Notes: generated by a model not told the origin, from the letters alone. DNA of 64,000 bases from an uncultured Verrucomicrobiae bacterium (GCA_963817685.1 CAWFPN010000010.1:2852-66851); one strand, 5' to 3'; numbered from the stretch's first letter, positions 25,759-61,803 are shown. A program made the numbers and translations.

Positions 25759-25834
25759 TGGAGCCAGCGATCGGACTCGAACCGATAACCTGCTGATTAC
25801 AAATCAGCTGCTCTGCCAATTGAGCTACGCTGGC
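25759..25834 (-). tRNA. tRNA-Thr (anticodon UGU)
   Basis: Manual cloverleaf: GCCAGCG-TA-GCTC-AATTGGCA-GAGC-A-GCTGA-TTTGTAA-TCAGC-AGGTT-ATCGG-TTCGAGT-CCGAT-CGCTGGC-T-CCA (76 nt, encoded CCA). Confidence 0.9.
25795..25834. repeat. attL core: 40-bp direct repeat (tRNA-Thr positions 1-40)
   Basis: gattacaaatcagctgctctgccaattgagctacgctggc, identical to 61764..61803. Confidence 0.85.
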
Positions 25835-25885
25835 TTTACCCTGTAAACTAAAGCTTTTATGCACGTACTTGAGGTGACTGTTTTT

Positions 25886-25898
25886 GTGTTGCAATGCT
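25886..25898 (+). promoter_or_regulatory. Candidate integrase arm-type site (left end)
   Basis: gtgttgcaatgct lies 52 bp inside attL. The same GTTGCAATG core occurs twice near attR. Confidence 0.35.
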
Positions 25899-25926
25899 TT
25901 GATGCATGGTTTAGGGTGTTTTCACC

Positions 25927-27117
25927 ATGAAAGCCACTCCAACGACCCGCAAGAATCAAAAGCTCATTCATGTTGGCGACTGTCTTTATCGTTCAAGCAT
26001 CACGGACGTTTACTACGGTATTTTTGAACGTGACGGCAGACAAGTCAAGCGCAGTCTGAAAACCGCAGACCGCGAACTCGCCAAGCGACGCCTGGAAGAT
26101 TTACGGCGCAAGGTCGAGCGCCTCACCGCAGATGATTCCAAGACGCTCCCCTTCGCTGAGTACAAGCGCGATGAAAAGACCGGCGAGATGACGGCCGAGT
26201 TGATCGGCGGACTGGCCAAGCGATGGTTTGATGCCGTGTCTGTTTCGATCAAGCCCAAGACAGTCCGCATGTATCTCAACTCAGTCAAGATGCTGGCCCG
26301 GCACTTCGGTAGCGTGACCGTCCGCGGTATCGGCCTGCGCCAGATCGAGCAATGGGCCGCGCAGCGCAGCGTCCAGTGTTCAGCTCGCACTTACAACGCT
26401 GATCGGGACGTGCTGCATCGGATCTTGGACTACGCCTGCAAGCACGGCTTGCTCCTGGAGAATCCGGCCAAAGAAATACGCCGGCGCCAATTGAGCAAGG
26501 AGAAGATCGTCATTCCGACTAAAGAGCAGTTTCGTCAACTGTTGGCGACCATGCGGGCGAATTATGGCAATGACTCCGCCGATCTGGTCGAGTTTCTCGG
26601 GTATAGCGGCTGCCGCCTCGCCGAGGTCGTTGGCGACGGTGAGCAGGGTAAGCCACCGATGGTCTGGGGCGACGTGAACTTTGAGCTTAAGACCTTCACC
26701 ATCGCAGGGAAAGGCAGTGGCGAGACCGGCAAGAGCCGCACGGTCCCGCTCTTCCCGCCGCTCGAAAGACTGCTGCTCGCTCTCAGATCGAGATTGCCGC
26801 AACCGCCCAAACCAACGGACAGGATCTTTCACATCAAGTCTGCCATGACCAGCCTGAAACGCTCCTGTCGCAAGCTGGGCCTGTCGGAGTTCAACCACCA
26901 TGCCATGCGACACTTCTTCTGCTCCAACTGCATTGAGGCGGGCGTTGACTTCAAGGTAATCGCCGGCTGGCTTGGTCATGTTGACGGCGGCGTGCTGGTT
27001 GCGCGGACCTACGGGCATCTACGGGACGTGCACAGCCGCGAAATGGCCAAGCGCATCACGTTCGACGCTGCCGCTGAAGAACCCGACAACGTCGTCCCAA
27101 TGGCGACCGGGAGATAA
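25927..27117 (+). CDS. Tyrosine recombinase / phage-type integrase
   Basis: GCRLAEV (Arg), HHAMRHFFCS (HxxR), GWLGH, RTYGHL (Tyr). Adjacent to the tRNA. Confidence 0.85.
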   Translation: MKATPTTRKNQKLIHVGDCLYRSSITDVYYGIFERDGRQVKRSLKTADRELAKRRLEDLRRKVERLTADDSKTLPFAEYKRDEKTGEMTAELIGGLAKRWFDAVSVSIKPKTVRMYLNSVKMLARHFGSVTVRGIGLRQIEQWAAQRSVQCSARTYNADRDVLHRILDYACKHGLLLENPAKEIRRRQLSKEKIVIPTKEQFRQLLATMRANYGNDSADLVEFLGYSGCRLAEVVGDGEQGKPPMVWGDVNFELKTFTIAGKGSGETGKSRTVPLFPPLERLLLALRSRLPQPPKPTDRIFHIKSAMTSLKRSCRKLGLSEFNHHAMRHFFCSNCIEAGVDFKVIAGWLGHVDGGVLVARTYGHLRDVHSREMAKRITFDAAAEEPDNVVPMATGR

Positions 27118-27156
27118 GAGGGCCAAGGCGACCGGACGGTGCTGAGCGAAGGGCCG

Positions 27157-27348
27157 TTATTCAGCGCGCGTTTCTTTCAGAAACCGTTCGATCTCGGGAA
27201 GTGGAAACAACGGTCGCCGCAACGCCCGACAAGGCCGCAACAATCCACGGGCAACAAGTCGGTCAACCGTGATTGGTGCCACACCCAAGGCTTTGGCTGT
27301 TTCCTTTCGTGTAAGCGCGAGTCGAATTTCTTTAGTGTTTGTCTGCAT
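27157..27348 (-). CDS. Excisionase/AlpA-like helix-turn-helix protein
   Basis: 63 aa. LTRKETAKALGVAPITVDRLVARGLLRP is a MerR/excisionase-type HTH. Confidence 0.65.
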   Translation of the reverse strand: MQTNTKEIRLALTRKETAKALGVAPITVDRLVARGLLRPCRALRRPLFPLPEIERFLKETRAE

Positions 27349-27366
27349 GGCGATCTCCTGTCTGGG

Positions 27367-27639
27367 TTACGACTGTTTCATGTCTCTGCCACAATCCTTC
27401 GGCGGTGAGTTGCTCCAACGTGAAGCCATACGAGCGCCGGCGGCGGAGCGAGCGCAGTGCAATGTGGAGCGCAGCTCTGCGAGCAATAGATTGACGGCGC
27501 GCAGCGAGCCGTACAATCGAAACGGCTCCCACGCAAAGTCGATGACTGATGGAGCGGAATCATTCGCCCACAGATAGCACAAGGGAGTCGTTCGACCGTG
27601 TGGCTCGTACACAAGATGTCTGAAGGACGGCGCGGGCAT
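27367..27639 (-). CDS. Hypothetical protein (weak call)
   Basis: 90-aa ORF ending 18 bp upstream of the excisionase-like gene. Its composition is more protein-like than the overlapping ORF 27378..27926. No recognisable motif. Confidence 0.25.
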   Translation of the reverse strand: MPAPSFRHLVYEPHGRTTPLCYLWANDSAPSVIDFAWEPFRLYGSLRAVNLLLAELRSTLHCARSAAGARMASRWSNSPPKDCGRDMKQS

Positions 27640-27922
27640 CCTTCGTGAAGAGCAATCGGAATGATTGGAGTCAGTGAGAGGAGACTGTGCGGACAGGGTG
27701 TGTCCGCGACTACGGACTGTCCCCGAAGGGGCTGACCGGCAATTGACGGTCGCTCCTGGCTGTCGGTGGCGAGCAACGCGTAGCCACGGACAGCGACGCG
27801 TGATGGATGCGCCTTGGCAGCGCAGCAGACGCGGCGAGCAGGACGCGACTTAAGCGTCCGCCGCGCCGGGTCTGATAGCATTCTGCCGGCGAATGACCGG
27901 CGAAGATTGCACGTGGTTGCGT

Positions 27923-28321
27923 TCAACGCGCCGTCTCCCGCAGTCCGGTTTGACTGTCGTTGCTCCGTGGGGCATTGCCTGCTGTAATCGACGGCTGGGT
28001 GTTAGCCGCAGCGCGTTTTGGTCGGCGGCGAGTGCGCGACTTGGTGGCGGCGTCTCCGCCCGCCGTCCAGCGGCCCAGGCACTCGCGTAAACGTGCTGGA
28101 CTTACCGGCACGCCGGCAGCCTTCAACTCTTCTGCCAATTGGTCACTCTTCCAGCCTTTGCGGCGCAACGTAAGCAACCGTTCGCGCAGTGGCTCCAGCA
28201 CGTCGGCGGCAGTCTTCCGCTTCCTCGGCGGCTCGCGTTGCGTCAACTGCTCCAGTTTGTTCTCCAACGCCGCGTAATCCAGCTTCGTGGCGATCTGCGT
28301 GTAATCCATGCGTGTGCTCAT
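27923..28321 (-). CDS. Hypothetical basic protein, possible relaxosome accessory/DNA-binding factor
   Basis: 132 aa, divergent from the relaxase across a 467-bp region. Contains the HTH-like WKSDQLAEELKAAGVPVSPARLRECL and an Arg/Lys-rich tail. Confidence 0.45.
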   Translation of the reverse strand: MSTRMDYTQIATKLDYAALENKLEQLTQREPPRKRKTAADVLEPLRERLLTLRRKGWKSDQLAEELKAAGVPVSPARLRECLGRWTAGGDAATKSRTRRRPKRAAANTQPSITAGNAPRSNDSQTGLRETAR

Positions 28322-28788
28322 ACTCAGTTCCTTTCACTTTTCTGCCGTCCGTGATTGGATGATTTCACCGACAACGTTTGACTCGTCATTGAACGTTTGT
28401 TCAAGCAGCCTTGGCACTTGGCGGCGAGCAGCCAAGCGCACCGGCCTCCAGCAGCCCGCAGGTCGGGCCAGGAGGGGTAAGTGTCTAGACTGCTTTCTCA
28501 TTTTCTTGCCACATCAGGCCCACACACTCTGTGCACATCTACGAACAATCAGCACTGCGCTTCCGCGGAATGTGGTTTGCATAAGACCACTCACATCGGT
28601 TGCACTGTAATTCAGCCGGCCCCATCATCTCGTGTACCTGTTACACGACATGCGCCGGCTTTCGTGCCAGACTGCGCACCGATGACCAAGAACCAGTTCA
28701 TCGCCGCCTATATCACCACACGGGCACGTGCCAAATTGTTCCCGTTTGGGAACAACTTCACACCACGGTTCCGATAACGTTCCGGGCC

Positions 28789-31700
28789 ATGTTCAGCGCC
28801 ATCCCACAAAAGAATCGAGTCGCCGCCACGACGTATTTTGACGAGCACCTGTCGCACAACGATTACTACACCCTGGGCGAAGTGTTGGCGCACGACCAAG
28901 GTGGTCATTGGATTGGCATCGGCGCGGAACAGTTGGGATTGCAGCCGGGTGAGGTTGTCAGCCGCGAAGCGTTCCTGCGGCTCTGCGATAATCTCCACCC
29001 AACGACAGGCGAACAACTCACCCCGCAACAGTTGCGGGAGCGTCGGCTCTATTTCGATTTCGTCTGCTCGCCGCCCAAGTCGGTGTCGATTCTGGCGGTC
29101 ACGATGAATGACCATCGCATCATCGAGGCACACCAGGAGGCCTCCACGATGGCGCTACGGGAGCTTGAGCAGTTCGCCGCCACACGCATTCGCAAGGCCA
29201 GCATTGAGGATCAGGATCGCATCACCGGCAACCTGGTCGGTGCAGCGTTTCTGCACACGAGTTCCCGCGCTCTGGACCCGCAACTGCACACGCATTTCGT
29301 CCTGTTCAACTGCACTTGGGACAAGTCCGAGAAGCGGTGGAAGGCGCTGCAAACCGGCGATATGTTCGGCGCGCTTAACTACGGCACAGCCGTCTATCGC
29401 AACGAACTGGCCAAGCGGCTCCACCGACTCGGCTACGGCACCCGGAAGGCCGCCAACGGGTTCGAGATCGAGGGCGTCGCGCCTGAGTTAATTGACCGGT
29501 TCTCGAAACGGTCGCAGCAACGGGATCTGGCCGTGAAACGTCAAGAGGCCAAGCTCGGTCGCAAACTGACCAAGCAGGAGATCGCTCACGTCGTCCACCA
29601 GTCCCGCCCAAAGAAGCTCAAGGGCGCCACCGATGATCAAGTACGCCGACAGCAACTTGGTGAGATCGGTTTCTTCGAGAAGCGGGCATTGCGCAAAGTG
29701 GTCGAAGCGGCCAATGGTCAGTCTGAGGATTTCACCCACTCGGTCACGATGCACGAGGCCGTTGACCACGGCATCGCACACGTTTTCGAGCGCGCTTCGG
29801 TCGCGCCGCAACACAAGCTTCTGGAAGCCGCCCTGGTCAAAGGCTGCGGCCAACTGAACCTGTCCCTGCTAAAGAATGCGCTGGCGGAACGCTCCGAGCT
29901 GGTGCGCGTGGGTTCGGAGGTCTCGACCCGCGACATTCTCACCAAGGAGCTTTCATTGATTCGTATGGTCAACGCCAGCATCGACACCATTGCTCCGATC
30001 ACCAACCGCTATGAACCGGCCCCCCATCTGGGCCCGGACCAGCGCAAAACCCTGGCACACGTGCTCAGCAGCCCCGACCGGTTCACCGGTTTTCGCGGCT
30101 TGGCCGGCACCGGAAAAAGCACGCTCCTCGTTGAACTGAACCGCGTGCTCGACAATGAAGGTTTCGAGGCCCTGTTCTGCGCTCCAACTGCTTCCGCTGC
30201 CGATACGCTACGCAAGGACAAGCTGGAAGCCGTCACGCTCGCCAACCTGCTGGCGGATCGGGCCATGCAGCGAACACTTTCCGCGCGCAGCGTGATCGTC
30301 CTGGATGAAGCTAGTGCGGTCGGCCTCGATGACATGGTAAAGGTGTTCAATCTGGCCGTAAGCGCGGGCGCTCGCGTGGTGCTCTCCGGCGACACCGGCC
30401 AGCATGCCTCCGTTGCCCGTGGGGATGCGCTCCGCATCCTCGAACAGTATTCGTCCTACCGCTTCAGCGAACTGACCACCATCCGCCGCCAGAAACCCGC
30501 TGTGTTCCGTCAGGTCGTAGAACTGGCCGCCGCCAAACAGACCGACAAGGCGTTTGCCAGGCTCGTGCAACTCGGTGCAGTGACAGAATCGCCCGTGGAG
30601 GATGGGAAACTGTACCAGCGGGCGGCCTACGCTTACCTGTCGGCCATCAATCAAGGCCGGTCGGCGCTACTGGTGTCGCCTACTTGGGCCGAGATCGAAG
30701 CGGTCACGGAGAAGGTGCGTGAAGCTCTCAAAGTTGAGGGCATCGTCAGCCAGGATGAGCACACGCTGTGGGTGTTTGATTCGCTTTCGTGGACAGAAGC
30801 GCAAAAGAGGAATATGAGCCAGTACGAACCCGGCCAACGTGTACGCTTCGTTCGCAAGACCAAGGCGTTTGATCGGGGCGAAACGGTCGAAGTCGCGGCG
30901 GTTGGTGAGGACGGCTTGCGAGTGCGCCGTCACGATGGAACGGAAGTGGATTTCATCCCGGCCGGTGCCGCCGGCTCGTTCGACGTGGGCGAAGCGCGTG
31001 AACTAAGAGTCGCCGCTGGCGATTGGCTGCTCCTACAAGCCAACCACGGCAGAGAGTTCATCAACGGCGAGCGCGTTCAGGTGCGGGAGGTCAGCGGCGG
31101 CCACATCACGCTCACCGACGGCCGGGTGCTGCCGGGCACATTCAACACCTTCACGCACGGCTACGCCGTCACCTCGCACTCGTCACAAAGCAAGACCGTC
31201 GATCACGTGCTCCTGGTCGCATCGTCACGCTCCTTCGGCGCGGTGAATCGAGAACAGTTCTACGTTTCCATTTCTCGGGGGCGGAAGGGTGTCCATGTGT
31301 TCACCGATGATACCCAACTGCTCGCTCGCCGCGTCACGGATTCCCACGAGCGCAAGGCTGCCGTCGAACTCCAAGGCCTGCGCGATGACCTGGCCAAGCT
31401 CGGCTTCCTGCGGCAACGTCAGCAAGAGCAGGACACCGTAACCCCGGCAACGACGGTAAGCCAAGATTTTCGCGCGGTGCGCTCGATGCGTCAGTCGCCG
31501 CGAGTGTTTCGCGCCACGCGTTTATCTCCGGTGCAACGGCTCGCTCAGTTGATCGAGGATGTGCATCGCTGGCTTCGCGAACGGTCCGGCGTTGAGCAAA
31601 AGGAAGTTTTCGCGGAGAAGCTCCCGCAAACCGAATCCATCAAACAGGCTGAGGCTGTCAAACCAACTCAGAAAATCAAACGGTCGCACACGGTCAACGA

Positions 31701-31794
31701 AGCTCTCCAGCAAAAACAATTCACGCGCCCGAAGCTGAGTCGGACCATTTCGCAACAAGGTGACACCGGCCACTCTCGCGGTATTGGTGTCTGA
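28789..31794 (+). CDS. MobF-family conjugative relaxase (TrwC/TraI-like) fused to a RecD-like helicase
   Basis: Start at the internal ATG 28789 (MFSAIPQKNRVAATTYF). Relaxase His triad FLHTSSRALDPQLHTHFVLFN. Helicase Walker A GLAGTGKST, DEASAV, and C-terminal YAVTSHSSQSKTVD. Confidence 0.85.
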   Translation: MFSAIPQKNRVAATTYFDEHLSHNDYYTLGEVLAHDQGGHWIGIGAEQLGLQPGEVVSREAFLRLCDNLHPTTGEQLTPQQLRERRLYFDFVCSPPKSVSILAVTMNDHRIIEAHQEASTMALRELEQFAATRIRKASIEDQDRITGNLVGAAFLHTSSRALDPQLHTHFVLFNCTWDKSEKRWKALQTGDMFGALNYGTAVYRNELAKRLHRLGYGTRKAANGFEIEGVAPELIDRFSKRSQQRDLAVKRQEAKLGRKLTKQEIAHVVHQSRPKKLKGATDDQVRRQQLGEIGFFEKRALRKVVEAANGQSEDFTHSVTMHEAVDHGIAHVFERASVAPQHKLLEAALVKGCGQLNLSLLKNALAERSELVRVGSEVSTRDILTKELSLIRMVNASIDTIAPITNRYEPAPHLGPDQRKTLAHVLSSPDRFTGFRGLAGTGKSTLLVELNRVLDNEGFEALFCAPTASAADTLRKDKLEAVTLANLLADRAMQRTLSARSVIVLDEASAVGLDDMVKVFNLAVSAGARVVLSGDTGQHASVARGDALRILEQYSSYRFSELTTIRRQKPAVFRQVVELAAAKQTDKAFARLVQLGAVTESPVEDGKLYQRAAYAYLSAINQGRSALLVSPTWAEIEAVTEKVREALKVEGIVSQDEHTLWVFDSLSWTEAQKRNMSQYEPGQRVRFVRKTKAFDRGETVEVAAVGEDGLRVRRHDGTEVDFIPAGAAGSFDVGEARELRVAAGDWLLLQANHGREFINGERVQVREVSGGHITLTDGRVLPGTFNTFTHGYAVTSHSSQSKTVDHVLLVASSRSFGAVNREQFYVSISRGRKGVHVFTDDTQLLARRVTDSHERKAAVELQGLRDDLAKLGFLRQRQQEQDTVTPATTVSQDFRAVRSMRQSPRVFRATRLSPVQRLAQLIEDVHRWLRERSGVEQKEVFAEKLPQTESIKQAEAVKPTQKIKRSHTVNEALQQKQFTRPKLSRTISQQGDTGHSRGIGV

Positions 31795-31829
31795 ACGTTC
31801 AACCAAAACCAACAACCCCCAACGAATCA

Positions 31830-32189
31830 ATGCCTCTCGCCAAAGAAAATTGCTACACCACTGCCAACAAGTATTGCGCTTGCGTCGAGTTTCATCTCGA
31901 CAAGGAGCATCGCCACGGCTTTCACGCCAACCAGTTGATCGATTACACCTTGGAACCCAACCCGGACGCCAGCGAGGACAAGAACGCGCCGCCGCAAAAA
32001 CTCGCGCTCGCCTTCTCTACCGCCGACGTGGTGATTTTGGGCTGGCGTCTCGGTCGGCTGGCCGATTTGCTCCGTGAAAATGAGCTCGCCGCGGTCCACG
32101 TCCTGCCCAAACGCTATGCTGATCTCGACCGGGGCAGACCGTTTGTCACCTCGATCATTATCACCCCGATCAACAAAGGCCAGTCATAG
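31830..32189 (+). CDS. Hypothetical protein
   Basis: 119-aa ORF directly downstream of the relaxase. No recognisable motif. Confidence 0.4.
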   Translation: MPLAKENCYTTANKYCACVEFHLDKEHRHGFHANQLIDYTLEPNPDASEDKNAPPQKLALAFSTADVVILGWRLGRLADLLRENELAAVHVLPKRYADLDRGRPFVTSIIITPINKGQS

Positions 32190-32443
32190 GGTATGAATGG
32201 GGCTGCCGCGCTAGAATTCGAACCTACCGCGCCCGATTCGTGCAAGGTTTTGCAGATTAGGGAATTGCTTTATTTGCAGGGACTTGGGTCATTTCCGCCT
32301 TAGGCGTTGAAGGTCATTAGGGGGCAAAGAGAGGCAAGAATACTGGCACCGATCCGGCACCGATTTCGCCAACATAAGTGCCAGAATTCTAATGTTTGTC
32401 TGGGCTGTTATGTGGGCCAATAAGCAACCGATCAATGGGTTTT

Positions 32444-33518
32444 TCAGTCTCCAAAGGAGATGTCCAGGGTGCGCGCGGTCATCACGCCGTGCCAATCCAC
32501 AGGCACAAGATTGAGCTTGGCCGTCGCTTCCTTTAACGGCACGTAGTTGATCCGCGGCGGATTGATGGCAACCATGACGCCGTCCTGACCTTCGGCCAGC
32601 GCCCGCACCGCGGCCGCACCGAATGCCAAGCCGAGAAATCGGTCCAGCGAAGTCGGCTGTCCGCCGCGGAGCAGATGTCCGAGGACAACGGCGCGCGTTT
32701 CCTTGCCGGTCAACTCTCGCAACTGACCGGCCACGATCTCGCCGACGCCGCCGAGCCGCTCGACATGGCCGGGATTGGCGGCTTCCCTTAACGTCACGCC
32801 GCCGCCGACCGGCTTTGCGCCTTCGGCCACAACGACAATGGAATATTGCCGGCTCCGGCTCGCCGTCTTGCGTTTAACATGCGCGGCGACTTTCGTGATG
32901 TCGTACGGAATTTCCGGTATCAGAATCGCGTCCGCCCGACCGGCGATGCCGGTATGCAACGCGATCCAGCCAGCATACCGGCCCATCACTTCGACGACCA
33001 TCACGCGCCGGTGCGAGTCCGCGGTGAAATGCAGCCGGTCCACACACTCGGTCGCAAACGACACTGCGCTGTCGAAACCGAAGGTTATCGCCGTGGATTG
33101 CAGATCGTTATCGATGGTCTTCGGCACGCCCACGACGCGCAGGCCTTTTTCATTCAACTCTTGGGCGATGGCCAGTGTGCCATCGCCGCCGACGGAAATG
33201 AGCGCGTCGAGTCGATGTTCTCTGAAACGTCGCAGGACTTCGTCGAATCCCGTGCGTCTTGAATGGATTGCCGCGGTTGCTCGTGCCCAGCATCGTGCCG
33301 CCGAGGTGCACAATGTTGCGGACGACCGGGCGCGTGAGTTTTATCAGGCCGCCATCTGGATAACTGTCTGGGTCGAGCAATCCGTCGAGTCCGTCGCGGA
33401 TGCCGAAGATTTCCCAGCCGAGATTGCGCGCCGCATAGACGGCCGCCTGAATAACAGCGTTCAGTCCCGGCGCGTCGCCGCCGCCGGTATTGATGGCGAT
33501 TCGTTTGATGGCGTTCAT
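32444..33518 (-). pseudogene. pfkA: ATP-dependent 6-phosphofructokinase, disrupted by one +1 frame change near 33251-33260
   Basis: N-terminal frame (33518 down): MNAIKRIAINTGGGDAPGLNAVI...HLGGTMLGTSNRGNPF. C-terminal frame: GFDEVLRRFREHRLDALISVGGDGTLAIA...GVPKTIDNDL...MGRYAGWIAL. The span is 1075 nt (3n+1). Confidence 0.8.
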
Positions 33519-35201: not shown

Positions 35202-35202
35202 C

Positions 35203-50331: not shown

Positions 50332-50598
50332 ATGAAAACCAGCCCCCTGCCAAAGGAAAGTCTCCTCGAACGCTACAACTGCGGGCCGGTTAAATTATCC
50401 TGTGACTCCAACGCTTTTTATGAGCGGCATGTCACGTTCGACCAGGTCGTCGCGGAAACGGAAACTTCCGATCGCGACAAGTACGAGGCCATCGCAGCTC
50501 GCGCAGCCATAAGAACCCAAATGATTCTCGAAGAGGCGAACTGGATGAACCCGTCAGGCGCACAAACGAGGCTATCCAAGCAGGGTAGGAAGGTATGA
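50332..50598 (+). pseudogene. 5' remnant of a glycogen phosphorylase gene (first ~55 codons homologous, then unrelated tail)
   Basis: LLERYNCGPVKLSCDSNAFYERHVTFDQVVAETETSDRDKYEAIA compared with the full glgP LLARYNCGPVKLSGEPNALYERHVAFDQVVPETETSPRDKYEAVA at 54783. Confidence 0.7.
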
Positions 50599-51242: not shown

Positions 51243-52373
51243 ATGAGCGAAACCAAAAACATTCTCGTGCTGAATGCCGGCTCGTCGAGCTTGCGGTTCG
51301 CGGTTTTCGATGAGTCACCGGCGCGCGTTCTCTCCGGCAAATTCGACCGCATCGGATTGCCGAAGTCGATCTTCATGACGCAAACCGAGCGCGCGGAAGT
51401 TCCGGTGGCGAATCACGTTGCGGCTTTGGAGCACTTGATGGAACGACTTGCCGGGATGGATCTCCGCGCCATCGGTCACCGGGTAGTACACGGCGGCGCA
51501 GCCTACCGGCAGCCGCAACGCGTGGACCACGCGATGCTCGCGGAACTGCGGCGCATTCGCGCGTTTGACCCGGAGCATCTTCCCGCAGAAATCGCGCTCA
51601 TGGAACTTCTCGCCGAAAAGTTTCCGGGCGTCCCCCAGATTGCTTGTTTCGACACGGCGTTTCACAGGACCATGCCGCGCGTGGCGCGGTTGCTCCCGAT
51701 CCCGCGCCGGTACGAAGCGCAGGGCGTGCAACGCTACGGCTTTCACGGCTTGTCGTACGAATATTTGCTGTCCCAACCGGCTCTGAACGGCAGAGTCATC
51801 CTCGCGCATCTCGGCAACGGCGCGAGCATGGCGGCGGTGCGCGACGGCCAACCGGTGGACACCACCATGGCGTTTACCCCCGCCGCCGGTCTGGTGATGA
51901 GCACCCGCTCCGGCGATATCGATCCCGGCTTGATCGCATTTCTGGCGCGGAGCGATCACATCACAGCAGCACAATTTACCCGGATGGTGAATCACGAATC
52001 CGGACTGCTGGGCGTTTCCGAAACCAGTTCGGACATGCGCGACTTGCTGGCGCGCGAAAGCAGCGACGTGCGCGCAGCCGAGGCCATCGCGTTGTTTTGC
52101 TATCAGGCGAAGAAATGGATCGGCGCGTACGCCGCCGCGCTCGGCGGACTCGACACCCTCGTGTTTACTGGCGGCATCGGCGAAAACTTGCCGGTGATTC
52201 GCGCCCGTATCTGCGATGGATTGGGTTTTCTCGGAATCGAACTCGACGAACAACAAAATGGCGGCAACGCCGGCATCGTTTCGCGCGGCCGGGTTGCGGT
52301 GCGCGTCATTCGCACCGATGAAGAAATGATGATCGCCCGGTCGGTCGGCAGAGTGTTGGGGGAAAACACATGA
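51243..52373 (+). CDS. ackA: Acetate kinase
   Basis: [25 protein letters not shown], and GFHGLSYEY. Confidence 0.85.
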
Positions 52374-54782: not shown

Positions 54783-57251
54783 GTGTCGATGAAGATCAAA
54801 ATGGAAAATCTGCTCGCGCGTTACAACTGTGGGCCGGTCAAACTGTCCGGCGAACCCAATGCGTTATATGAACGGCACGTGGCCTTCGATCAAGTCGTCC
54901 CGGAAACGGAAACCTCCCCCCGCGACAAGTACGAGGCCGTCGCGCGCTCCGTGCGCGATGTGCTCTCGCAACGTTGGCTGAAAACCGAGCAGACCTACCG
55001 GCAGCGCAATGCCAAGCGCGTTTATTACCTCTCGATGGAGTTCCTGCTCGGTCGCACCCTGGCGAACAACATCACCAATCTCCTGCTTGACCCTGGCTGG
55101 CACCAGTTCTGCCAATATGAGCGACTCGACCCCCTGCAGATCATCGAGCAGGAACCGGATGCCGGTCTGGGCAACGGCGGCCTGGGCCGGCTGGCGGCGT
55201 GTTTTCTCGATTCAATGGCGACACTGGCCATTCCCGGCATGGGTTATGGCTTGCGCTACGAGTACGGGATGTTCCGGCAAGACATCCGCAATGGCTGGCA
55301 GGTCGAACAACCCGACCACTGGCTCGCGCGGCCTAGCCCGTGGGAGGTGCCGCGGCCCAACGAAGCCGTTGAGGTAAAGCTCAACTGTTCGTTCGAGATC
55401 CGGGGTGGCGCGCTGCGGGTTGTCGAAGGACGCCCGTCATCCCTTATCGGCATTCCTTACGACCGGCCTGTGGTCGGATACGGCGGCCGGACAATCAACA
55501 CGCTACGTCTGTGGGCTGCCAAGACGCCGAACTCATTCGACTTCGCCCGATTCAGCAGCAGCGATTTCGTCGGCGCACTGGCCGAAACCCTCACCGCCGA
55601 GACGCTCACGCGTGTTTTGTATCCCGACGACCATACAGTGGAGGGCAAAGGTCTGCGATTCCTTCAAGAATACTTTCTTGTCGCGTGCTCGCTGGCCGAT
55701 CTCGTCCGACGTTTCCGCGCCGCCGGCAACGATTGGCCGGCGCTGGCCGACAAGGTGGCCATTCAACTCAACGACACGCATCCGGCGATCGCCGTGCCGG
55801 AATTGATGCGGCTGTTGCTGGACGAGGCAAAGCTAAGTTGGGACGACGCGTGGAATCTCACGCAACGCACGCTGGCATACACCAACCACACGCTGCTGCC
55901 GGAAGCACTGGAGAAATGGCCGGTGCAGTGGTTCACGGATCTCCTGCCGCGCCATCTCGAAATCATTTACGAAATCAATCGCCGCTTCCTCGAGGACGTC
56001 CGCACTCGCTATCCCAGCGATGCCGGGCGGATCGAGCGCGTCAGCCTCATCGAAGAAGGCGTGGCCCACCAAGTCCGCATGGCGCCCCTGGCCATTGTTG
56101 GCTCGCACAGCACCAACGGCGTTGCCGCGCTGCATTCGGAGTTGCTCAAGCAGCGAGTCGTGCCGGATTTTGCGGCCCTGTTCCCCGAACGCTTCAACAA
56201 CAAAACCAACGGCGTCACGCCGCGCCGCTGGCTGCTGCTGGCCAACCTGTCGCTGGCAGCGGTCATCACCGAGGCCATCGGCGACGGCTGGATCACCGAT
56301 CTGATGCAGTTGGAGAAGCTGAAACCGCTCGCCGATGACGCGTCGTTTCGTGCCGCGGTCCGCAAGGCGAAACGCCAGGCGAAGACGCGGTTCATCGGGT
56401 GGCTGGGAATGCCAGGGATCGATCCCGACACGATTTTTGACACCCAGATCAAACGCATCCACGAATACAAACGGCAACTGTTGAACGCGTTGCACATTGT
56501 CGTGCTCTATAACCGTCTGCGCGACAACCCGCAGCTCGATGTGCCGCCGCGCGCCTTCTTCTTCGGCGGCAAGGCCGCGCCCGCGTATTCCTTCGCCAAG
56601 CTCGTCATCAAGTTCATCAACAACCTGGCTGGCACGCTCGACGGTGATCCGATCACCCAAGGCCGGTTGAAGGTCGTCTTCGTGCCGGACTACCGTGTGT
56701 CCATCGCGGAATATCTGATCCCGGCCAGCGACGTGTCCGAGCAAATCTCGACGGCCGGCTACGAAGCCAGCGGCACGAGCAACATGAAATTCATGATGAA
56801 CGGTGCGCTGACCATTGGCACACGCGACGGCGCGACCATCGAGATGGCGAAAGCGGCCGGTGAGGAAAACTTCTTCCTCTTTGGTCTGACCGCAGAAGAG
56901 GTCGAGGGCAGCCGCGCTTGGTATGATCCGCGCTGGCACTACGACCACGAACCCGAAACGCGCGCCGCCCTCGATTTGATTGCCGGCAATCATTTCAGCC
57001 GAAACGAACCCGGCGTTTTCGCGCCCATCCTCGATGCGCTGCTGAAGCACGGCGATTACTACCGGCATTTGGCCGACCTCACCAGTTATGCCGAAGCGCA
57101 GCAACGCCTAGGCGAGTTGTACGCCGACCAACAGGCGTGGACGCGCAAAGCCATCCTTAACATCGCCGCGTCCGGCAAGTTTTCCAGTGACCGCACCATT
57201 GCCGAATACGCAAAAGAGATTTGGGATGCCAAACCATGCATAGTCGAATAA
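54783..57251 (+). CDS. glgP: Glycogen/alpha-glucan phosphorylase
   Basis: 822 aa. YLSMEFLLGR, GLGNGGLGRLAACFLDS, and the PLP-Lys region EASGTSNMKFMMNGALTIGTRDGATIEM. The start may be the ATG at 54789. Confidence 0.9.
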   Translation: MSMKIKMENLLARYNCGPVKLSGEPNALYERHVAFDQVVPETETSPRDKYEAVARSVRDVLSQRWLKTEQTYRQRNAKRVYYLSMEFLLGRTLANNITNLLLDPGWHQFCQYERLDPLQIIEQEPDAGLGNGGLGRLAACFLDSMATLAIPGMGYGLRYEYGMFRQDIRNGWQVEQPDHWLARPSPWEVPRPNEAVEVKLNCSFEIRGGALRVVEGRPSSLIGIPYDRPVVGYGGRTINTLRLWAAKTPNSFDFARFSSSDFVGALAETLTAETLTRVLYPDDHTVEGKGLRFLQEYFLVACSLADLVRRFRAAGNDWPALADKVAIQLNDTHPAIAVPELMRLLLDEAKLSWDDAWNLTQRTLAYTNHTLLPEALEKWPVQWFTDLLPRHLEIIYEINRRFLEDVRTRYPSDAGRIERVSLIEEGVAHQVRMAPLAIVGSHSTNGVAALHSELLKQRVVPDFAALFPERFNNKTNGVTPRRWLLLANLSLAAVITEAIGDGWITDLMQLEKLKPLADDASFRAAVRKAKRQAKTRFIGWLGMPGIDPDTIFDTQIKRIHEYKRQLLNALHIVVLYNRLRDNPQLDVPPRAFFFGGKAAPAYSFAKLVIKFINNLAGTLDGDPITQGRLKVVFVPDYRVSIAEYLIPASDVSEQISTAGYEASGTSNMKFMMNGALTIGTRDGATIEMAKAAGEENFFLFGLTAEEVEGSRAWYDPRWHYDHEPETRAALDLIAGNHFSRNEPGVFAPILDALLKHGDYYRHLADLTSYAEAQQRLGELYADQQAWTRKAILNIAASGKFSSDRTIAEYAKEIWDAKPCIVE

Positions 57252-57326
57252 CAACGCCCCGAATGGTGATGTTCGTTCTGCTGCTTGTGCTGTCCGGCTA
57301 CGCCTCGTCCTGCCAATGGACCGACC

Positions 57327-59283
57327 ATGATCGCTGAAGGCCAGCCAATACCGCCAGGAGTGACGTGGGAGGACGACGGGTGGAACTTCGCCCTGTACTC
57401 CCGGCACGCGACCGGCGTGACGTTGCTGTTGTACGACGGGAAGAATTTCGTGAAGCCGCTGGCCGAACTCACGCTCGATCCGCTTCAGAACAAGACGGGA
57501 CGGATCTGGCATTGCTTCGTCCCTCGCGTGGCAGGCGTGCGATACTACGCCTACCGGGTCGAAGGCCCGAGCGGCGCACTGCAGCAGTTCGACGCGCAGA
57601 AGGTGTTGCTCGATCCCTTCGCCGAGCAGGTATTCTTTCCGCCGGAGTTTTCGCGTGCCGCCGCGATGCGGGCGGGCGCGAACGATGGACACGCACCGCT
57701 CGGTGTGTTGCCGGTGAAGAAGCCGGCCACTGGGAAGTTCACGCGGATCCGGCATCCGTGGCACGAGATTGTCATTTATGAGTTGCACGTCAAGGGTTTC
57801 ACGGCCCGCGCGAACTCCGGAGTGACGAAGGAAAAACGCGGGACGTTCCTGGGCTTGATCGAGAAGATTCCGTATCTGAAGGAACTCGGCGTGACGGTGG
57901 TGGAATTGTTGCCGGTGCATCAGTTCGATCCGCAGGAGGGCAATTACTGGGGCTACATGACGTTGAACTTTTTCGCGCCGCATCAAGGCTACGGCGTGCA
58001 CGACGCGGCGGCGGAGTTTCGCGAGATGGTGCGCGCGTTTCACGCGGCGGGAATCGAGGTGTGGCTCGACGTAGTGTACAACCATACGTGCGAAGGCGAC
58101 CGGACCGGCCCGACGTATTCGTGGCGCGGGATTGACAACAGCAGTTACTACCTGCATCGGCCGGATGGACAATACTGCAACGACAGCGGTTGCGGGAACA
58201 CGCTGCGGTGCGGCCGCGACGCCGCGCGCATGCTGATTCTGGAGAGCCTGCGGCATTGGGCGAATCTCGGCGTGGACGGGTTTCGTTTTGATTTGGCCTC
58301 GGCAATGGCGCGCGATGCGCACGGCCAAGTGCAGACGGAAGATGCCGCGCTGATCAGCGAAATTACCGCGCTGGCGATCTCGCGCAGATCTCCGAGTAGT
58401 GGCCGAGGCGTGGGACATCGGGGTGAATTTGCTGGGTAAAAGATTTCCGGGCTGGCTGTGGGGACAGTGGAACGGCCGGTATCGCGATGATGTGCGCGCG
58501 TTTGTCCGTGGCGATGCCGGCAAGGTCGGCGCGTTGATGCAGCGGTTGTACGGCAGCGATGACTTGTTTCCCGACGGCCCGGGGGATGTGTACCGGCCGT
58601 ATCAGAGCGTCAACTTCATCACCGCGCACGATGGTTTTTGTCTTTACGATCTGGTCGCCTACAACCACAAACACAACGCGGCGAACGGGCACAACAACAC
58701 GGATGGCACAGACCACAATGTGAGTTGGAACTGCGGTTGGGAAGGTGATGGGAGCGCGCCGGCGGAGGTGCTCGCGTTGCGCCGGCGACAGGTGAAGAAC
58801 TTTTTCTGTCTGCTGATGTTATCAAACGGCACGCCGATGTTCTGCGCGGGCGACGAGTTTCTGAACACCCAAGGCGGCAACAATAACCCGTACAATCAAG
58901 ACAACGAGACGACGTGGCTCGATTGGTCGAAGCTGGAGAAGAACCGGGACATCTTTCAGTTTTTTCAGCGGATGATCGCGTTTCGCAAAACCCACCCGGC
59001 GATCGCGCGCGGTCGCTATTGGCGGGAGGCGGTGCGGTGGTACGGCGCGACTGGCCCGGTGGATTTTGATTCGCGCTGTCTGGCGTATTGTTTGCACGGC
59101 GCGAGCGACCTGTACGTCATGATCAACGCCTTCTGGGAGCCGGTGCGATTCCAAATTCAGCAGTCCGGCGCCTGGAACTGTGTCGTGGACACCAGCCGCC
59201 AGGATTTGGCAACGCAGGCTGTCGACGGGCTGAACTACGAGGTCGCGCCACGGTCCGTCGTCGTGCTGGAGCGCGCATGCTGA
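57327..59283 (+). pseudogene. glgX: Glycogen debranching enzyme (GH13 GlgX-type), with one +1 frame change near 58386
   Basis: YELHVKGFT, GIEVWLDVVYNHT, GVDGFRFDLAS, then ...ALAISR|a|DLRVVAEAWDIG continues in the +1 frame (listed ORF 58399..59283) with NFITAHDGF. The span is 1957 nt (3n+1). Confidence 0.85.
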
Positions 59284-59660: not shown

Positions 59661-60512
59661 TCAGTGTTCTGGCAACAAGCTGAGCAGGTTGGTTTTCACA
59701 TAGTCCCCGGCTTGCTGCGCATCATAAACCATTCCCGCACGGAGCAATGGGTTCGTGTCCGAACAAAATCCGCGGTCGGCCAGATGCGCGTCCAGAATCG
59801 CCACAAACTCCGTCCGTCCGGCAACACTGCGTTCCAATCGAAGATAATGTTGAAACGACTCGATTATCTTAGCGGGAACAACAGGTGGTTGCGCATGGTT
59901 CAGCGCCCAAAACAGGTCAAACAAATCTCGTCCGCGTCGCCGCTGAAACAGCGCCCGTAGTTTTGTTCCCAACATTTCGTGGATGTCGTAGCCCTTGATC
60001 TGCGTCCGCACCGGCGAATCTCGAAATGGAAATTCAAACGGGATTGTGACCACCGGAAGATGTGGTGTGCGCTCGGTCACATTGACCTCAACCACAACTT
60101 CCAGGTCCGCCCCCGGTTCCATGAGTGAATGAACAGCAAAAGTCATCCGCAGCACCCGCGAAGGTTTCACGGTGTTGCGGATGGCCAATTTGAGTTCGCC
60201 CCACACCGACTGTGTCGGGGCGCCCAGCACGCCGCTCAAAACGCGATTGAGCGCCTTGCGAATATGACTCTCCGGACGATTGCCGACCACGACAAGGTCA
60301 ATGTCCTCGCTGTAGCGGGACGGTGGCGCGAGATGAACCTTGTGCAGCAACGTGCCGCCGCGCATGGCAATCTGGCCCTGCAAAAACGAATCGTCAAACA
60401 ACGCGACCATCGCACGGCACAACAACAAATCCTGCTCGACTTGAACCTGGCTCGGCCACGGAACGACCGATTGATGGGCGATAACATCCCGGCGCGTGAT
60501 GGGCGTCATCAT
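59661..60512 (-). CDS. Nucleotidyltransferase AbiEii/AbiGii-family toxin
   Basis: GGTLLHKVHLAPPSRYSEDIDLVVV and RGRDLFDLFW motifs. 4-bp overlap with the upstream antitoxin gene. Confidence 0.75.
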   Translation of the reverse strand: MMTPITRRDVIAHQSVVPWPSQVQVEQDLLLCRAMVALFDDSFLQGQIAMRGGTLLHKVHLAPPSRYSEDIDLVVVGNRPESHIRKALNRVLSGVLGAPTQSVWGELKLAIRNTVKPSRVLRMTFAVHSLMEPGADLEVVVEVNVTERTPHLPVVTIPFEFPFRDSPVRTQIKGYDIHEMLGTKLRALFQRRRGRDLFDLFWALNHAQPPVVPAKIIESFQHYLRLERSVAGRTEFVAILDAHLADRGFCSDTNPLLRAGMVYDAQQAGDYVKTNLLSLLPEH

Positions 60513-61354
60513 CGTCCAAACTCCACGGTGTTGTTAATGATTTTCCACCGTTTGATTTCAGGAGCATCACCGCGCAAACCCGGAACGAGCGGCACGAAAA
60601 TCAAACCGGATGGCAGCCAATTCTGAACGACCTGGGCCAACTTGGTTGCCCGCAACTTTTCCAGCACAAAACCCAGGCGCTGGGCCGTGGCTGGCTTGTC
60701 TTCAATTTTCAGCACCCGGTGCAACTCGGCTGGGCGCATGAGCGCCAGCAGTGGGGCGATGGTTTCCGCCGCCCGGCCAATGCCGCCGATGCGCGGTGCG
60801 TAGCGAATCAAATCGTAGCTGGTTGCCACTGGCGTGCTGACCTGCAACGGCGCAAAAGCATTCGCCAATGGCTGTGTGGGTGTCTGCTCCAAGGTGCGCT
60901 TCACAAAGAACTGGACGCGAATACGACCGATTTCAAGGGTGCGGCGTGGAATCTTGGTCATCACCTGTGTCACCTGCAATGCCTGCGGATTTGAACCGAA
61001 TGAACTAGCTGCCGACTGAAGCGCCAGATAATACGGCTGCTCCAACCATTGAAAATAATCGTGCAGCCACCACGTCACCGGCGGAGCACCCACCGCACGA
61101 TGCTCAGGGCTGACAATCAGAAAAAACTGTTGTCGCGGCGAAACTCTCCTCACCCGGTTTCCCAACCGCAACAACTGTTTTCTGGCCGCCGTCACCGACA
61201 ACCCAGTTTCTTTGACCAAATCCGCCAGCGGAAAGGCCACGCGTCCCGAGGTCAGGCGTTGGTCAACGAAGGTGGCAGCCGACCCGTCCATACGGGATTG
61301 GGATTTGGATTGCGTCATTTTTTCGTTTGCAGATCGTACCGTATTTCGGTTCAC
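60509..61354 (-). CDS. AbiEi-family (type IV TA) antitoxin, wHTH protein
   Basis: GRVAFPLADLVKETGLSVTAARKQLLRLGNRVRRVSPRQQFFLIV is a wHTH. Translationally coupled to the AbiEii gene. The start may be the ATG at 61318. Confidence 0.6.
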   Translation of the reverse strand: MNRNTVRSANEKMTQSKSQSRMDGSAATFVDQRLTSGRVAFPLADLVKETGLSVTAARKQLLRLGNRVRRVSPRQQFFLIVSPEHRAVGAPPVTWWLHDYFQWLEQPYYLALQSAASSFGSNPQALQVTQVMTKIPRRTLEIGRIRVQFFVKRTLEQTPTQPLANAFAPLQVSTPVATSYDLIRYAPRIGGIGRAAETIAPLLALMRPAELHRVLKIEDKPATAQRLGFVLEKLRATKLAQVVQNWLPSGLIFVPLVPGLRGDAPEIKRWKIINNTVEFGR

Positions 61355-61611
61355 TGTGCAAACGCATTAAATTCACTCTAAGCTGCCCGGCAAGAGTGAG
61401 ATTTAGGATTTTACCGTGTCTTACGCAATTAACTGTCATCCGTTAAAATTGAATACCCAACTGCTTTATATTCACGCGGCCACAGGGATCTGAGAGGTCA
61501 CAATTAAGGTGTGGGAAATTCATCGTAGGAGGTCAGGCCCGCGAACCCGTGGTTTGGGACGGTGATCATCTTCGCAGGCCAGGCGGAACGCGCGTCGTTG
61601 ATGAAGAGAAC

Positions 61612-61638
61612 GTGTTGCAATGTTTTGTTGCAATGTTG
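61612..61638 (+). promoter_or_regulatory. Two direct copies of the GTTGCAATGTT motif (candidate integrase arm-type sites, right end)
   Basis: gtgttgcaatgttttgttgcaatgtt. Copies are at 61614..61624 and 61627..61637, 126-150 bp inside attR, in the same orientation as 25888..25898. Confidence 0.35.
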
Positions 61639-61763
61639 CGGCCGAATTTGAGTGGCTTCAGGCAAACGGCAGCAAACGTCCAACACGCAGGAAAGCCCGA
61701 TGGCTATTGGGTTTTGTGCACTCCAGCAAAGACGAGTAAATACAGGCTAAAACCGTCCTCAAC

Positions 61764-61803
61764 GATTACAAATCAGCTGCTCTGCCAATTGAGCTACGCT
61801 GGC
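61764..61803. repeat. attR core: displaced 5' 40 nt of tRNA-Thr (no 3' half present)
   Basis: Exact copy of 25795..25834. The left-flanking sequence (aaaaccgtcctcaac) is unrelated to the tRNA. Confidence 0.85.

Follow-up and report, generated by a model that had tools for sequence, protein, structure and literature searches.

RESULTS

Two copies of a half tRNA-Thr gene

The window that we analysed is a 64-kb stretch of DNA from a Verrucomicrobiota-like bacterium. Its single tRNA gene, called by ARAGORN as tRNA-Thr(tgt) on the minus strand at 25759-25834, scores 72.6 bits in Rfam, which found nothing else in the window, and reads as a complete tRNA-Thr(UGU) cloverleaf. A repeat search of the window returned an exact 40-nt direct repeat at 25795-25834 and 61764-61803. 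Read directly, this repeat equals positions 1-40 of the tRNA: the acceptor 5' strand, the D arm, the 5' strand of the anticodon stem, the entire anticodon loop (25797-25803) and 2 nt more. Identity between the copies stops sharply at tRNA position +1 (25835 tttacc... versus 61804 gaccgt...), and on the other side they diverge from tRNA position 41 on (25794 versus 61763). The identity blocks of attL and attR both lie on the minus strand, attL at 25795-25834 and attR, an orphan chromosomal 5' half of tRNA-Thr, at 61764-61803. With up to 3 mismatches allowed, a 23-mer of the repeat occurs at two sites only in the window (no match in any of 100 shuffles), so that an internal third att copy is absent. 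The idea that the copy at 61764 is a second, misread whole tRNA gene was dropped because its 3' sequence (gttgaggacgg...) breaks off the gene instead of continuing it; both ARAGORN and Rfam leave 61764-61803 without a tRNA call.

We infer that the complete tRNA gene is a hybrid, with positions 41-76 (25759-25794) of chromosomal and positions 1-40 (25795-25834) of element origin. Beyond the orphan half, 61804-62045 (minus strand) reads as the former chromosomal upstream region of tRNA-Thr, which now faces into the element, toward abiEi/abiEii. Further right, a minus-strand ORF at 62139-63878 was discarded as spurious; the true gene lies on the plus strand from 62046.

Gene content of the element

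The repeats enclose genes for an integrase (int), an Xis-like HTH protein and a MobF relaxase-helicase, together with roughly 27 kb of cargo and AbiEi/AbiEii. The tyrosine integrase (25927-27117, plus strand, 396 aa; PF00589, 5e-12) starts 92 bp from the 5' end of the tRNA and is transcribed away from it. The protein is complete, aligning with its relatives from end to end, and its catalytic residues R230, H325, R328, H351 and Y362 (R/H/R/H/Y) are invariant in 17 diverse relatives. Homologues number 939 at E<=1e-20; among annotated integrases of phage and plasmid collections, even the closest share no more than 23-25% identity. The next gene, at 27157-27348 on the minus strand, encodes a candidate excisionase (Xis/AlpA-like), a 63-aa HTH_17 protein whose PF12728 match of 27.0 bits falls exactly at the Pfam cut-off. 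It is also called as a gene in loci L112 and L113, and homologues with 61-94% identity occur in 40 other loci, directly 3' of int in those listed. Its placement in a plus-strand ORF at 27139-27408 was wrong.

Three small backbone ORFs without assigned function follow (27378-27926, minus strand; 27923-28321, minus strand, with a weak DUF6471 match; 28308-28610, plus strand); they are kept together with the relaxase in L020, L026, L030, L032, L038, L041 and L059. The relaxase itself (28600-31794, plus strand) is of MobF (TrwC) type and fused to an SF1B helicase (Pfam TrwC 2.1e-70, AAA_30 1.2e-40), and its NCBIfam MobF score of 192.7 bits compares with a cut-off of 100. A 119-aa ORF, orf119 (31830-32189, plus strand), has copies with 77-85% identity 3' of the relaxase in L020, L026, L030, L032, L038 and L059, the six relatives whose retrieved sequence includes the relaxase 3' end; equally similar copies in L001-L003 follow a C-terminal remnant of the relaxase. 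The backbone from int and xis through the small ORFs and relaxase to orf119 is shared with L026, a two-ended integrative mobilisable element (IME) of 9.2 kb, and with six other loci.

The cargo block assigned by Pfam scans (32444-59283) holds a PFK fragment, patatin, LpxR, a sigma-54 response regulator, a hybrid PAS/GAF histidine kinase, thioredoxin, an RND efflux trio, a DedA/VTT protein, acetate kinase, a split phosphoketolase, glycogen phosphorylase and a split GlgB-like enzyme. Most of it resembles ordinary metabolism. At the element edge, the AbiEii toxin (59661-60512, minus strand; PF08843, 3.2e-27) and the AbiEi antitoxin (60509-61354, minus strand; PF09407, 4.7e-20; AbiEi_1) adjoin with a 4-bp overlap, the arrangement of an AbiE type IV toxin-antitoxin or abortive infection system, from which we detected no unusual departure.

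Pfam and NCBIfam profile searches found no T4SS or coupling protein genes among the element ORFs. Every element ORF of at least 250 aa has a confident non-conjugative Pfam assignment, and no unannotated ORF exceeds 238 aa, which is too short for VirB4 or VirD4. With its own integrase and relaxase but neither mating-pair-formation genes nor a coupling protein, the region 25795-61763 (equivalently 25835-61803; 35,969 bp) is an IME on the 5' side of tRNA-Thr.

These results bear out every part of an earlier sequence-only reading of this DNA that our searches could address. The 40-bp repeat and its identity with tRNA positions 1-40 were recovered by repeat search, ARAGORN, Rfam and direct reading, and the intact minus-strand tRNA does lie at the int end of the element. 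All the genes it had listed (int, xis-like HTH, MobF relaxase-helicase, AbiEi/AbiEii) were found by profile searches, and its classification as an IME rather than an ICE stands, with MobF above its cut-off and no VirB4, VirD4 or other T4SS family among the ORFs. One of the two outcomes it had named as fatal, a misread whole tRNA at 61764, did not occur.

Arm sites at both ends

The 92-bp spacer between tRNA and int (25835-25926), which we designate the P' arm from sequence reading and motif counts, contains the arm-type repeat TGTTGCAATG at 25887-25896; a second copy, at 25901-25909, is degenerate (6/9). On the element side of the other end, the P arm (61504-61763; motif count and comparison with relatives) has two TGTTGCAATG copies in tandem, one at 61613-61622 (152 bp from the core) and one at 61626-61635 (138 bp). 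The shorter motif GTTGCAATG occurs four times in the 64 kb, three of them at the element ends (0.86 expected); within the element it is found at the two ends only. Equal paired arm repeats at equal distances occur in 12 other two-ended elements, and the motif covaries with subclade (TGTTGCAATG versus TGTAACCCG).

L026 shares the arm motif with our element but targets tRNA-Arg. Its right end is 77% identical to 61610-61797. Its integrase is 79% identical to ours over residues 1-70 and just 45% over residues 71-190, a pattern that fits an N-terminal arm-binding domain followed by a core-binding domain. In the tandem arrays of L026 and L067, P arm, core and P' arm are adjacent, forming natural attP-like junctions.

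Reversed orientation throughout the integrase lineage

With the integrase alignment we found 295 relatives among GTDB species genomes and examined the best 80 (41-80% identity). A divergent tRNA gene begins 81-149 bp upstream of int at 72 of these 80 loci, and three of the other eight show the same tRNA interrupted by a contig end; the conventional tRNA arrangement was seen in 0 of the best 80 of 295. The tRNAs beside int bear 12 different anticodons, and an integrase 93% identical to ours, from an element that shares the backbone (DNA 92% identical over 3.5 kb), sits in the same orientation at tRNA-Lys(CUU). Both ends are visible in 14 relatives of 1.7-10 kb, where the far copy of the repeat corresponds to the 5' portion of the tRNA alone. 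This copy starts at tRNA position 1 in 12 of the 14 (position 4 in L086, 8 in L064) and ends at position 38-40 in 13 (position 28 in L068). The anticodon loop delimits the identity block, which ends at position 40 in our element and at 38-40 in 13 of the 14 relatives, a set that uses four tRNA species. The duplication of the 5' rather than the 3' half, as the earlier reading had it, is real and common to the whole lineage. Judged from these comparisons, reversed insertion is a fixed trait of the integrase lineage and no accident of this locus. The lineage is largely limited to Verrucomicrobiota and other PVC bacteria.

Candidate promoters for the rebuilt tRNA

Integrases that target tRNA genes normally rebuild the 3' portion of the gene. 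Replacement on the 5' side requires that the element supplies a promoter. On the tRNA strand of the 92-bp spacer, the promoter scan found no sigma-70-like match of at least 8/12. The sole sigma-70-like site from the scan of 25500-26100 lies at 26048-26020 on the minus strand, antisense within int codons 31-41 and facing the tRNA (TTGACT-17-AAAAAT). Its -35 codons (CAA GTC AAG) show 93-96% synonymous-site invariance among 28 distinct relatives, and in this copy the site is the best candidate for an element-supplied tRNA promoter. A promoter-like match overlapping the arm repeats is present in 31 of 76 relatives versus 6.4 expected; in the window element this arm-overlapping site is degenerate. 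The spacer also holds a candidate int promoter (TTGCAA at 25889-25894, 17 nt, TAGGGT at 25912-25917, with the ATG 9 nt on). In the former upstream region, a weak promoter-like pair (TTGCAA at 61862-61857, 16 nt, TACATT at 61840-61835) matches at 8/12, under the threshold of the promoter scan.

DISCUSSION

With an intact tRNA at one end, a co-oriented fragment of the same tRNA at the other and int between them, the region is arranged like a tyrosine-integrase island that occupies a tRNA gene. As in islands of reverse orientation, what has been displaced is the 5' portion, which is found upstream of the rebuilt gene. Very probably the element is a 35,969-bp IME that its own integrase placed into the anticodon loop of tRNA-Thr, rebuilding the 5' half of the gene, which is the habit of the whole lineage. 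The attP site would bear tRNA positions 1-40 oriented opposite to int, with one repeat pair on its int side (P' arm), about 52-70 bp away from the 5' end of the tRNA, and another on its other side (P arm), about 135-152 bp away from the core. The tyrosine integrase would recombine the element site-specifically into the chromosomal tRNA-Thr(UGU) gene, and strand exchange within the 7-nt anticodon loop would join the element 5' half to the chromosomal 3' half. The attL product would be an intact tRNA with element DNA upstream, and attR would keep the stranded chromosomal 5' half with the native promoter. Int together with the Xis-like HTH_17 protein would release a circle, the MobF relaxase-helicase would nick a putative oriT, and for transfer the element would borrow the mating channel of a conjugative element in the same cell. 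The part of AbiEi/AbiEii would be island stability or phage defence.

In the collections that we searched we found no empty attB, attP junction or insertion-free syntenic genome; homologues of the right-flank protein (at most 79% identity) had no adjoining tRNA-Thr, and exact-protein look-ups matched solely contigs of the same sequencing run (ERR11571142). Therefore the mobility of this copy, from recombination through excision to transfer, is deduced from its anatomy and from conservation across relatives. Given that neither excision product nor empty site turned up, it might be possible that the island arrived as proposed but is now fixed, its ends merely surviving after the capacity to excise or transfer was lost. 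Three broken cargo genes (phosphoketolase with a 1-nt indel near 52950, the GlgB-like gene and PFK), the degenerate second P' repeat and a GC content equal to that of the flanks speak for such a fossil. However, the 40-bp repeats are identical, int is full length with all catalytic residues, and no damage is seen in xis, the relaxase or either P-arm repeat; the split genes could mark an old fixed island or could be indel errors of metagenome assembly. We consider loss of mobility somewhat unlikely. Another possibility is that an IME of about 6-9 kb, spanning int to orf119, was joined in tandem at one att site by another island or a stretch of chromosome, the internal att being lost later. The minimal relative L026 has the same backbone in only 9.2 kb, tandem arrays at such sites are known from L026 and L067, and the cargo is large and housekeeping-like. 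This composite origin is nevertheless improbable: the 23-nt search left no internal core copy, GTTGCAATG is restricted to the two ends, and the 36 kb, as found, would leave as a single unit.

MobF relaxases are usually partnered by a coupling protein, and several small ORFs are unannotated, so one could think of an ICE whose conjugation genes went unrecognised. We regard this as very improbable, since ORFs of at least 250 aa are all confidently non-conjugative and the unannotated ones too short for VirB4 or VirD4; for lack of a T4SS of its own the element was not classed as an ICE. That the repeat arose by chance or by segmental duplication of half a tRNA, independently of the integrase, is a bare possibility of almost negligible weight. 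The shuffles speak against it, as do the conserved arm-site distances and the recurrence of the 5'-half repeat in 14 independent elements of the lineage, 13 of them ending at 38-40; with these two-ended relatives and arm sites, such a duplication appears effectively refuted.

Returning to integrase-driven insertion on the 5' side, one may ask how the tRNA is expressed. A PVC-restricted integrase lineage with the core flipped relative to the arms, in which at least one subclade re-expresses the tRNA from an antisense promoter inside int, is a doubtful proposal. If it were true, each member of the lineage would part an essential tRNA gene from its native promoter, transcription of the tRNA would cross the int promoter and the arm sites head-on, and expression of an essential host tRNA would be coupled to silencing of int during the integrated state.

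Comparison with known systems

The earlier reading had presented 5'-side replacement as uncommon, and rightly so: a 5' tDNA fragment is found in 159 of 3919 Islander islands (about 4%; PMC4383910, Table 1). Its implied novelty held up less well, bacterial and archaeal cases having been catalogued. Use of the tRNA 5' side has been described for bacteria (Zhao & Williams 2002, as cited in PMC6563490), and archaeal integrases of the pTN3 type are known to share it (PMC8371274). The arrangement itself is therefore not new, and the insertion here is a further case of an already documented, uncommon one. In the papers that we searched we found no report of a whole bacterial integrase lineage, or of Verrucomicrobiota, uniformly reversed.

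As far as the citing paper describes them, the reversed islands of Zhao & Williams 2002 resemble our element: both are tyrosine-integrase islands that regenerate the 5' portion of the tRNA, and in both the original 5' fragment with its promoter has moved to the far end. The anticodon-loop sublocation class (Williams 2002, as reported in PMC4383910 and PMC8371274) likewise has an identity block bounded by the loop and related integrases that use differing tRNA identities, and the 7-nt loop with its symmetric stem would here be compatible with an overlap region flanked by core sites. Compared with that class, the core of our element is reversed relative to int and arms and carries the 5' rather than the 3' half. 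In the account given in PMC8371274, pTN3-like integrases (Cossu 2017; Krupovic & Bamford 2008) also have the tRNA 5' half as attB, and there as here the element would have to drive expression of the recombinant tRNA. However, the att site of pTN3 lies inside int, so that integration splits the gene ('suicidal'), and its tRNA is said to use the int promoter, whereas our int is transcribed away from the tRNA. Assignment to the suicidal class was rejected, as the 396-aa int gene is unbroken and its start codon lies 92 bp downstream of the core. The pTN3 host is archaeal and ours bacterial, and a sequence relationship is not detectable. In its integrase, excisionase-like HTH protein and TrwC/TraI-type relaxase-helicase without T4SS or T4CP the element is like MOBF-type IMEs, and its adjacent, overlapping gene pair is like that of AbiE systems.

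Results

The element between the tRNA repeats

The tRNA-Thr(UGU) gene at 25759-25834 (minus strand), recognized by ARAGORN and by Rfam (72.6 bits), is the sole tRNA gene that ARAGORN reports in the window, and Rfam gave no further RNA families in the 64 kb. In our analysis we found that 25795-25834 and 61764-61803 form an exact direct repeat of 40 nt; a 23-mer from the repeat, searched with up to three mismatches, detected no third copy in the window, and none of 100 shuffles matched. Read against the cloverleaf, the repeat corresponds to tRNA positions 1-40, just as the sequence-only reading had it. It spans the acceptor 5' strand, the D arm, the 5' strand of the anticodon stem and the full anticodon loop (25797-25803) plus two bases, and identity is lost exactly at tRNA +1 at one end and at position 41 at the other. 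The copy at 61764 has no tRNA continuation, and this rules out the case in which it would belong to a second complete tRNA.

The genes named in that reading were all found inside the repeats by Pfam and NCBIfam scans. Between the tRNA 5' end and the start of the tyrosine integrase gene (int, 25927-27117, plus strand) are 92 bp, and int reads away from the tRNA. The xis-like HTH is an HTH_17 protein of 63 aa (27157-27348, minus strand) that scores 27.0 bits, exactly the cut-off. After three small ORFs without assigned function there follows a MobF/TrwC relaxase fused to an SF1B helicase (28600-31794; NCBIfam MobF 192.7 bits, cut-off 100), then a 119-aa ORF. AbiEii and AbiEi are encoded at 59661-61354 (minus strand). 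The cargo of about 27 kb comprises a PFK fragment, a patatin, LpxR, a sigma-54 two-component pair, a thioredoxin, an RND efflux trio, DedA, acetate kinase, phosphoketolase, glycogen phosphorylase and a GlgB-like enzyme. Since Pfam and NCBIfam gave no T4SS ATPase or coupling-protein match for any ORF of the element, and the unannotated ORFs reach at most 238 aa, the element is an integrative mobilisable element (IME) and not an ICE, as had been proposed. There is no GC contrast between the element and its flanks.

Three cargo genes are split or truncated. The phosphoketolase gene (52370-54761) consists of two overlapping ORFs with a 1-nt indel near 52950 (atctctgcatctc), the gene of the GlgB-like enzyme (57285-59283) has a break at about 58400, and PFK (32444-33313) lacks the N-terminal 75 profile positions. 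These interruptions may be assembly indels or real decay leading to pseudogenes. We also observed a 387-bp tandem duplication (86-87% identity) at 40222-41027 within a hybrid PAS/GAF histidine kinase gene, probably representing duplicated PAS modules, and a 144-nt repeat (79% identity) with one copy at the start of an 88-aa ORF (50352-50495) and the other at the glycogen phosphorylase gene's 5' end (54800-54943).

Empty site and neighbourhood

Neither an empty site nor an excision junction was found in the collections searched, in which the source organism occurs only once. In exact-protein look-ups the integrase and two left-flank proteins either had no match or matched only short contigs from the same run. 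One short-read Logan contig with an identical int (L112, run ERR11571142) begins within the 40-bp repeat; branching of the assembly graph there would produce such a start, and the contig is uninformative on excision. To the right of the element, the long ORF at 62139-63878 (minus strand) is spurious, being antisense to the true gene, which lies on the plus strand at 62046-64000, starts with a signal peptide (MKSCQ...) and runs past the window end. A metagenome scan with this gene gave 20 homologue loci with at most 79% identity, and at 0 of the 20 does a tRNA-Thr gene lie upstream; either synteny is not conserved or the matches are paralogous. To the left of the element, the junction of a ShlB-type transporter gene and a TPS-domain (two-partner secretion) gene carries an 84-nt direct repeat (95% identity; 21155-21238 and 21317-21400) with an internal 30-nt inverted repeat.

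The reversed orientation across the integrase lineage

The reversed orientation is a property of the integrase lineage. We found 939 integrase homologues at E<=1e-20, and on the contigs with 88%, 78%, 58% and 50% identical homologues an opposite-strand tRNA gene (Thr-UGU, Thr-UGU, Arg-UCU and Ser-GCU, in this order) lies just upstream of int in every one. An alignment of 17 integrases, scanned against one genome per GTDB species, yielded 295 relatives, and the loci of the best 80 of these (41-80% identity) were analyzed. They derive nearly throughout from Verrucomicrobiota MAGs, with Chthoniobacter flavus Ellin428, Lentisphaerae, Kiritimatiellaeota and Methylacidiphilum also represented; the C. 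flavus relative (L065) is 4.15 kb long and sits at a tRNA-Arg(UCU). A divergent tRNA gene is present in 72 of the 80 loci, with 81-149 bp between the tRNA 5' end and the int start. Among the remaining eight, three have the same tRNA, interrupted by the contig end; at one (L088, upstream of position 10001) int is adjoined by just the 5' half of a tRNA-Arg(CCG), suggestive of an attP or tandem array; at two (L038 and L059) int occupies a putative target other than a tRNA, upstream of an argC-like gene; and at two the arrangement could not be judged. The conventional 3'-side arrangement was found at none of the 80 loci. Their tRNAs represent 12 anticodons and are specific for Thr, Gln, Lys, Arg, Met, Ser and Leu.

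The two loci with an argC-like gene (junction upstream of position 10001) fall within the Arg-UCU integrase subclade and share its arm repeats, but no tRNA adjoins int; their junction contains a hairpin with a TTTCATA loop and may be a non-tRNA target. At four loci we noted repeats of the tRNA 3' half (about positions 41-75) on the chromosomal side, 200-8000 bp past the tRNA 3' end (L015:9494, L036:9522, L086:9636 and L042:1582). These may be remnants of conventional 3'-side elements in the same tRNA genes.

A common att layout

Both element ends are visible at 14 of the related loci (elements of 1.7-10 kb; that of L064 is interrupted by a contig end). In 14 of 14 the distal repeat consists of the 5' part of the tRNA only. 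It starts at position 1 in 12 of them (position 4 in L086, position 8 in L064) and ends at positions 38-40 in 13, the exception being L068 with position 28. Therefore the inner limit of the identity block is the 3' edge of the anticodon loop, whichever tRNA is used. The anticodon-loop sublocation class has the same inner boundary signature; the difference is that here the 5' half is borne by the element.

The window and 12 two-ended relatives have a common att layout. The int side (P' arm) carries two direct repeats of 9-10 bp, spaced by 12-13 bp, at 52-70 bp from the tRNA 5' end, and the far side (P arm) carries a second, identically oriented pair 135-152 bp inward of the end. The motif depends on the subclade, being TGTTGCAATG in the window and the Arg-UCU subclade and TGTAACCCG in more distant members, with positions constant. 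GTTGCAATG occurs four times in the 64-kb window versus 0.86 expected by chance, and three of these copies are at 25888, 61614 and 61627. We infer that the arm repeats are arm-type Int sites, and this reading is supported by the pattern of identity between Int domains: compared with the integrase of L026, a tRNA-Arg element with the same motif, identity is 79% over residues 1-70, 45% over residues 71-190 and 60% in the catalytic part, whereas with members having the other motif N-terminal identity is only 37-51%. Apparent tandem arrays at L026 and at a further locus (L067), in which the attR core is directly followed by another P' arm and int, contain several consecutive P-arm/core copies (L026:18931-19328; L067:13784-13970, 17882-18081 and 19862-20017) and provide natural attP-like junctions.

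Candidate promoters of int and of the tRNA gene

On the int strand a promoter-like arrangement is conserved, in which TTGCAA (25889-25894) forms a -35 inside an arm repeat, followed after 17 nt by TAGGGT (25912-25917) and 9 nt further on by the ATG. Three relatives (L053, L056 and L074) have a perfect TATAAT as int -10, which ends 6-7 nt before the ATG. The arrangement suggests that the int mRNA is nearly leaderless and that its promoter overlaps putative Int binding sites and is autoregulated by Int.

Because repeat identity stops at +1, the element does not carry the native tRNA promoter; the native upstream region remains at attR, where the tRNA gene's chromosomal 5' half is stranded. This region (61804-61862) has a weak promoter-like TTGCAA-16-TACATT (61862-61835, minus strand) and now faces abiEi/abiEii. 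Since it points into the operon, read-through could lead to abiEi-abiEii expression, and only while the element is integrated. That the native promoter at attR drives element genes as a general rule was rejected, the terminal genes being co-directional in just 6 of 13 two-ended elements.

For a promoter that would now serve the tRNA several positions were considered. A consensus scan found no sigma-70-like promoter on the tRNA strand of the 92-bp spacer. In a positional scan 31 of 76 relatives had a tRNA-strand match of at least 8/12, versus 6.4 in shuffles, with the -35 within one arm repeat and the -10 ending 44-48 nt before the tRNA; no such match was found in the window, where this arm-overlapping site is degenerate. 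AT-rich, -10-like hexamers adjoining tRNA +1 in relatives (e.g. TAAAAT ending at -9 in the Arg-UCU subclade) were discarded as a general promoter, as their position is inconsistent across subclades. Within 25500-26100 the single sigma-70-like site reported by the consensus scan is TTGACT-17-AAAAAT (26048-26020, minus strand), antisense in int codons 31-41. Its -35 is formed by the Q-V-K codons (CAA, GTC and AAG), which are 93-96% invariant at synonymous sites among 28 distinct relatives, whereas other invariant residues of the same stretch use their commonest codon mostly at just 45-80%. The motif is absent from more distant subclades. From its conservation, we regard this antisense site as the best candidate for the tRNA promoter of the window; it would imply that about 179 nt of leader run antisense to the int 5' end.

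A shared backbone on different tRNA genes

The block int-xis-orf182-orf132-(orf100)-relaxase-orf119 recurs in seven relatives, with relaxases 80-88% identical. L026 is one of them, a two-ended IME of 9.2 kb in tRNA-Arg(UCU); at the right end, its P arm and that of the window have 77% identity. At another locus (L113, JGI 3300041809; features at 1112-1188 and 1282-2472) an Int 93% identical to that of the window (367/396 residues) is found at a tRNA-Lys(CUU), again on the 5' side, and the DNA is 92% identical across window positions 25768-29261. The tRNA-Thr(UGU) and tRNA-Lys(CUU) genes are the same at positions 8-31 and in the anticodon stem, but their loops (TTTGTAA and CTCTTAA, respectively) and acceptor stems are different. 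These comparisons are good, if indirect, evidence of a mobile backbone and of recent target switching.

Discussion

Our results support the earlier interpretation overall: taken alone, the window contains a well-formed, fairly ordinary mobilisable island in an uncommon orientation, an example of a kind already known. The usual reason for the 3' bias of tRNA-targeting elements is that an element on the 5' side must supply a promoter. The integrase lineage described here offers hundreds of natural cases in which this promoter cost is paid, with a compact and conserved att layout in at least 12 tRNA species. Together with the lineage, the pair of 93% identical integrases on two different tRNAs makes both the promoter question and the acquisition of new targets directly testable. 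Island finders or annotators built on the assumption of a 3' fragment will place the borders of such islands wrongly in Verrucomicrobiota genomes. With the attP sites defined here, the integrases may also serve as tools in a phylum for which genetic tools are few.

Integration on the 5' side has been noted before. In Islander, 159 islands have a 5' tDNA fragment and 3760 a 3' fragment (PMC4383910, Table 1), and 5'-side integration has been called 'considerably less frequent' in an article (PMC6563490) that cites Zhao & Williams 2002 for bacteria. Archaeal pTN3-like integrases use the tRNA 5' half, and the tRNA is reportedly expressed from the int promoter; use of the 5' half is described there as 'seldomly encountered in bacteria' (PMC8371274). 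In contrast to the pTN3-like systems, int is unsplit here and divergent from the tRNA. The PDB, phage and plasmid collections searched hold no characterised close relative of the integrase: its best PDB match is a XerC-like protein (E=7.5e-6), and the best phage and plasmid integrases are 23-25% identical. In the part of the literature that could be searched, we found descriptions of neither a uniformly reversed bacterial integrase lineage nor an account at the level of Verrucomicrobiota or of the clade. In conclusion, the 5'-side phenomenon itself is already catalogued, and our findings add to it the lineage-wide picture, the conserved att layout and an apparently recent target switch.
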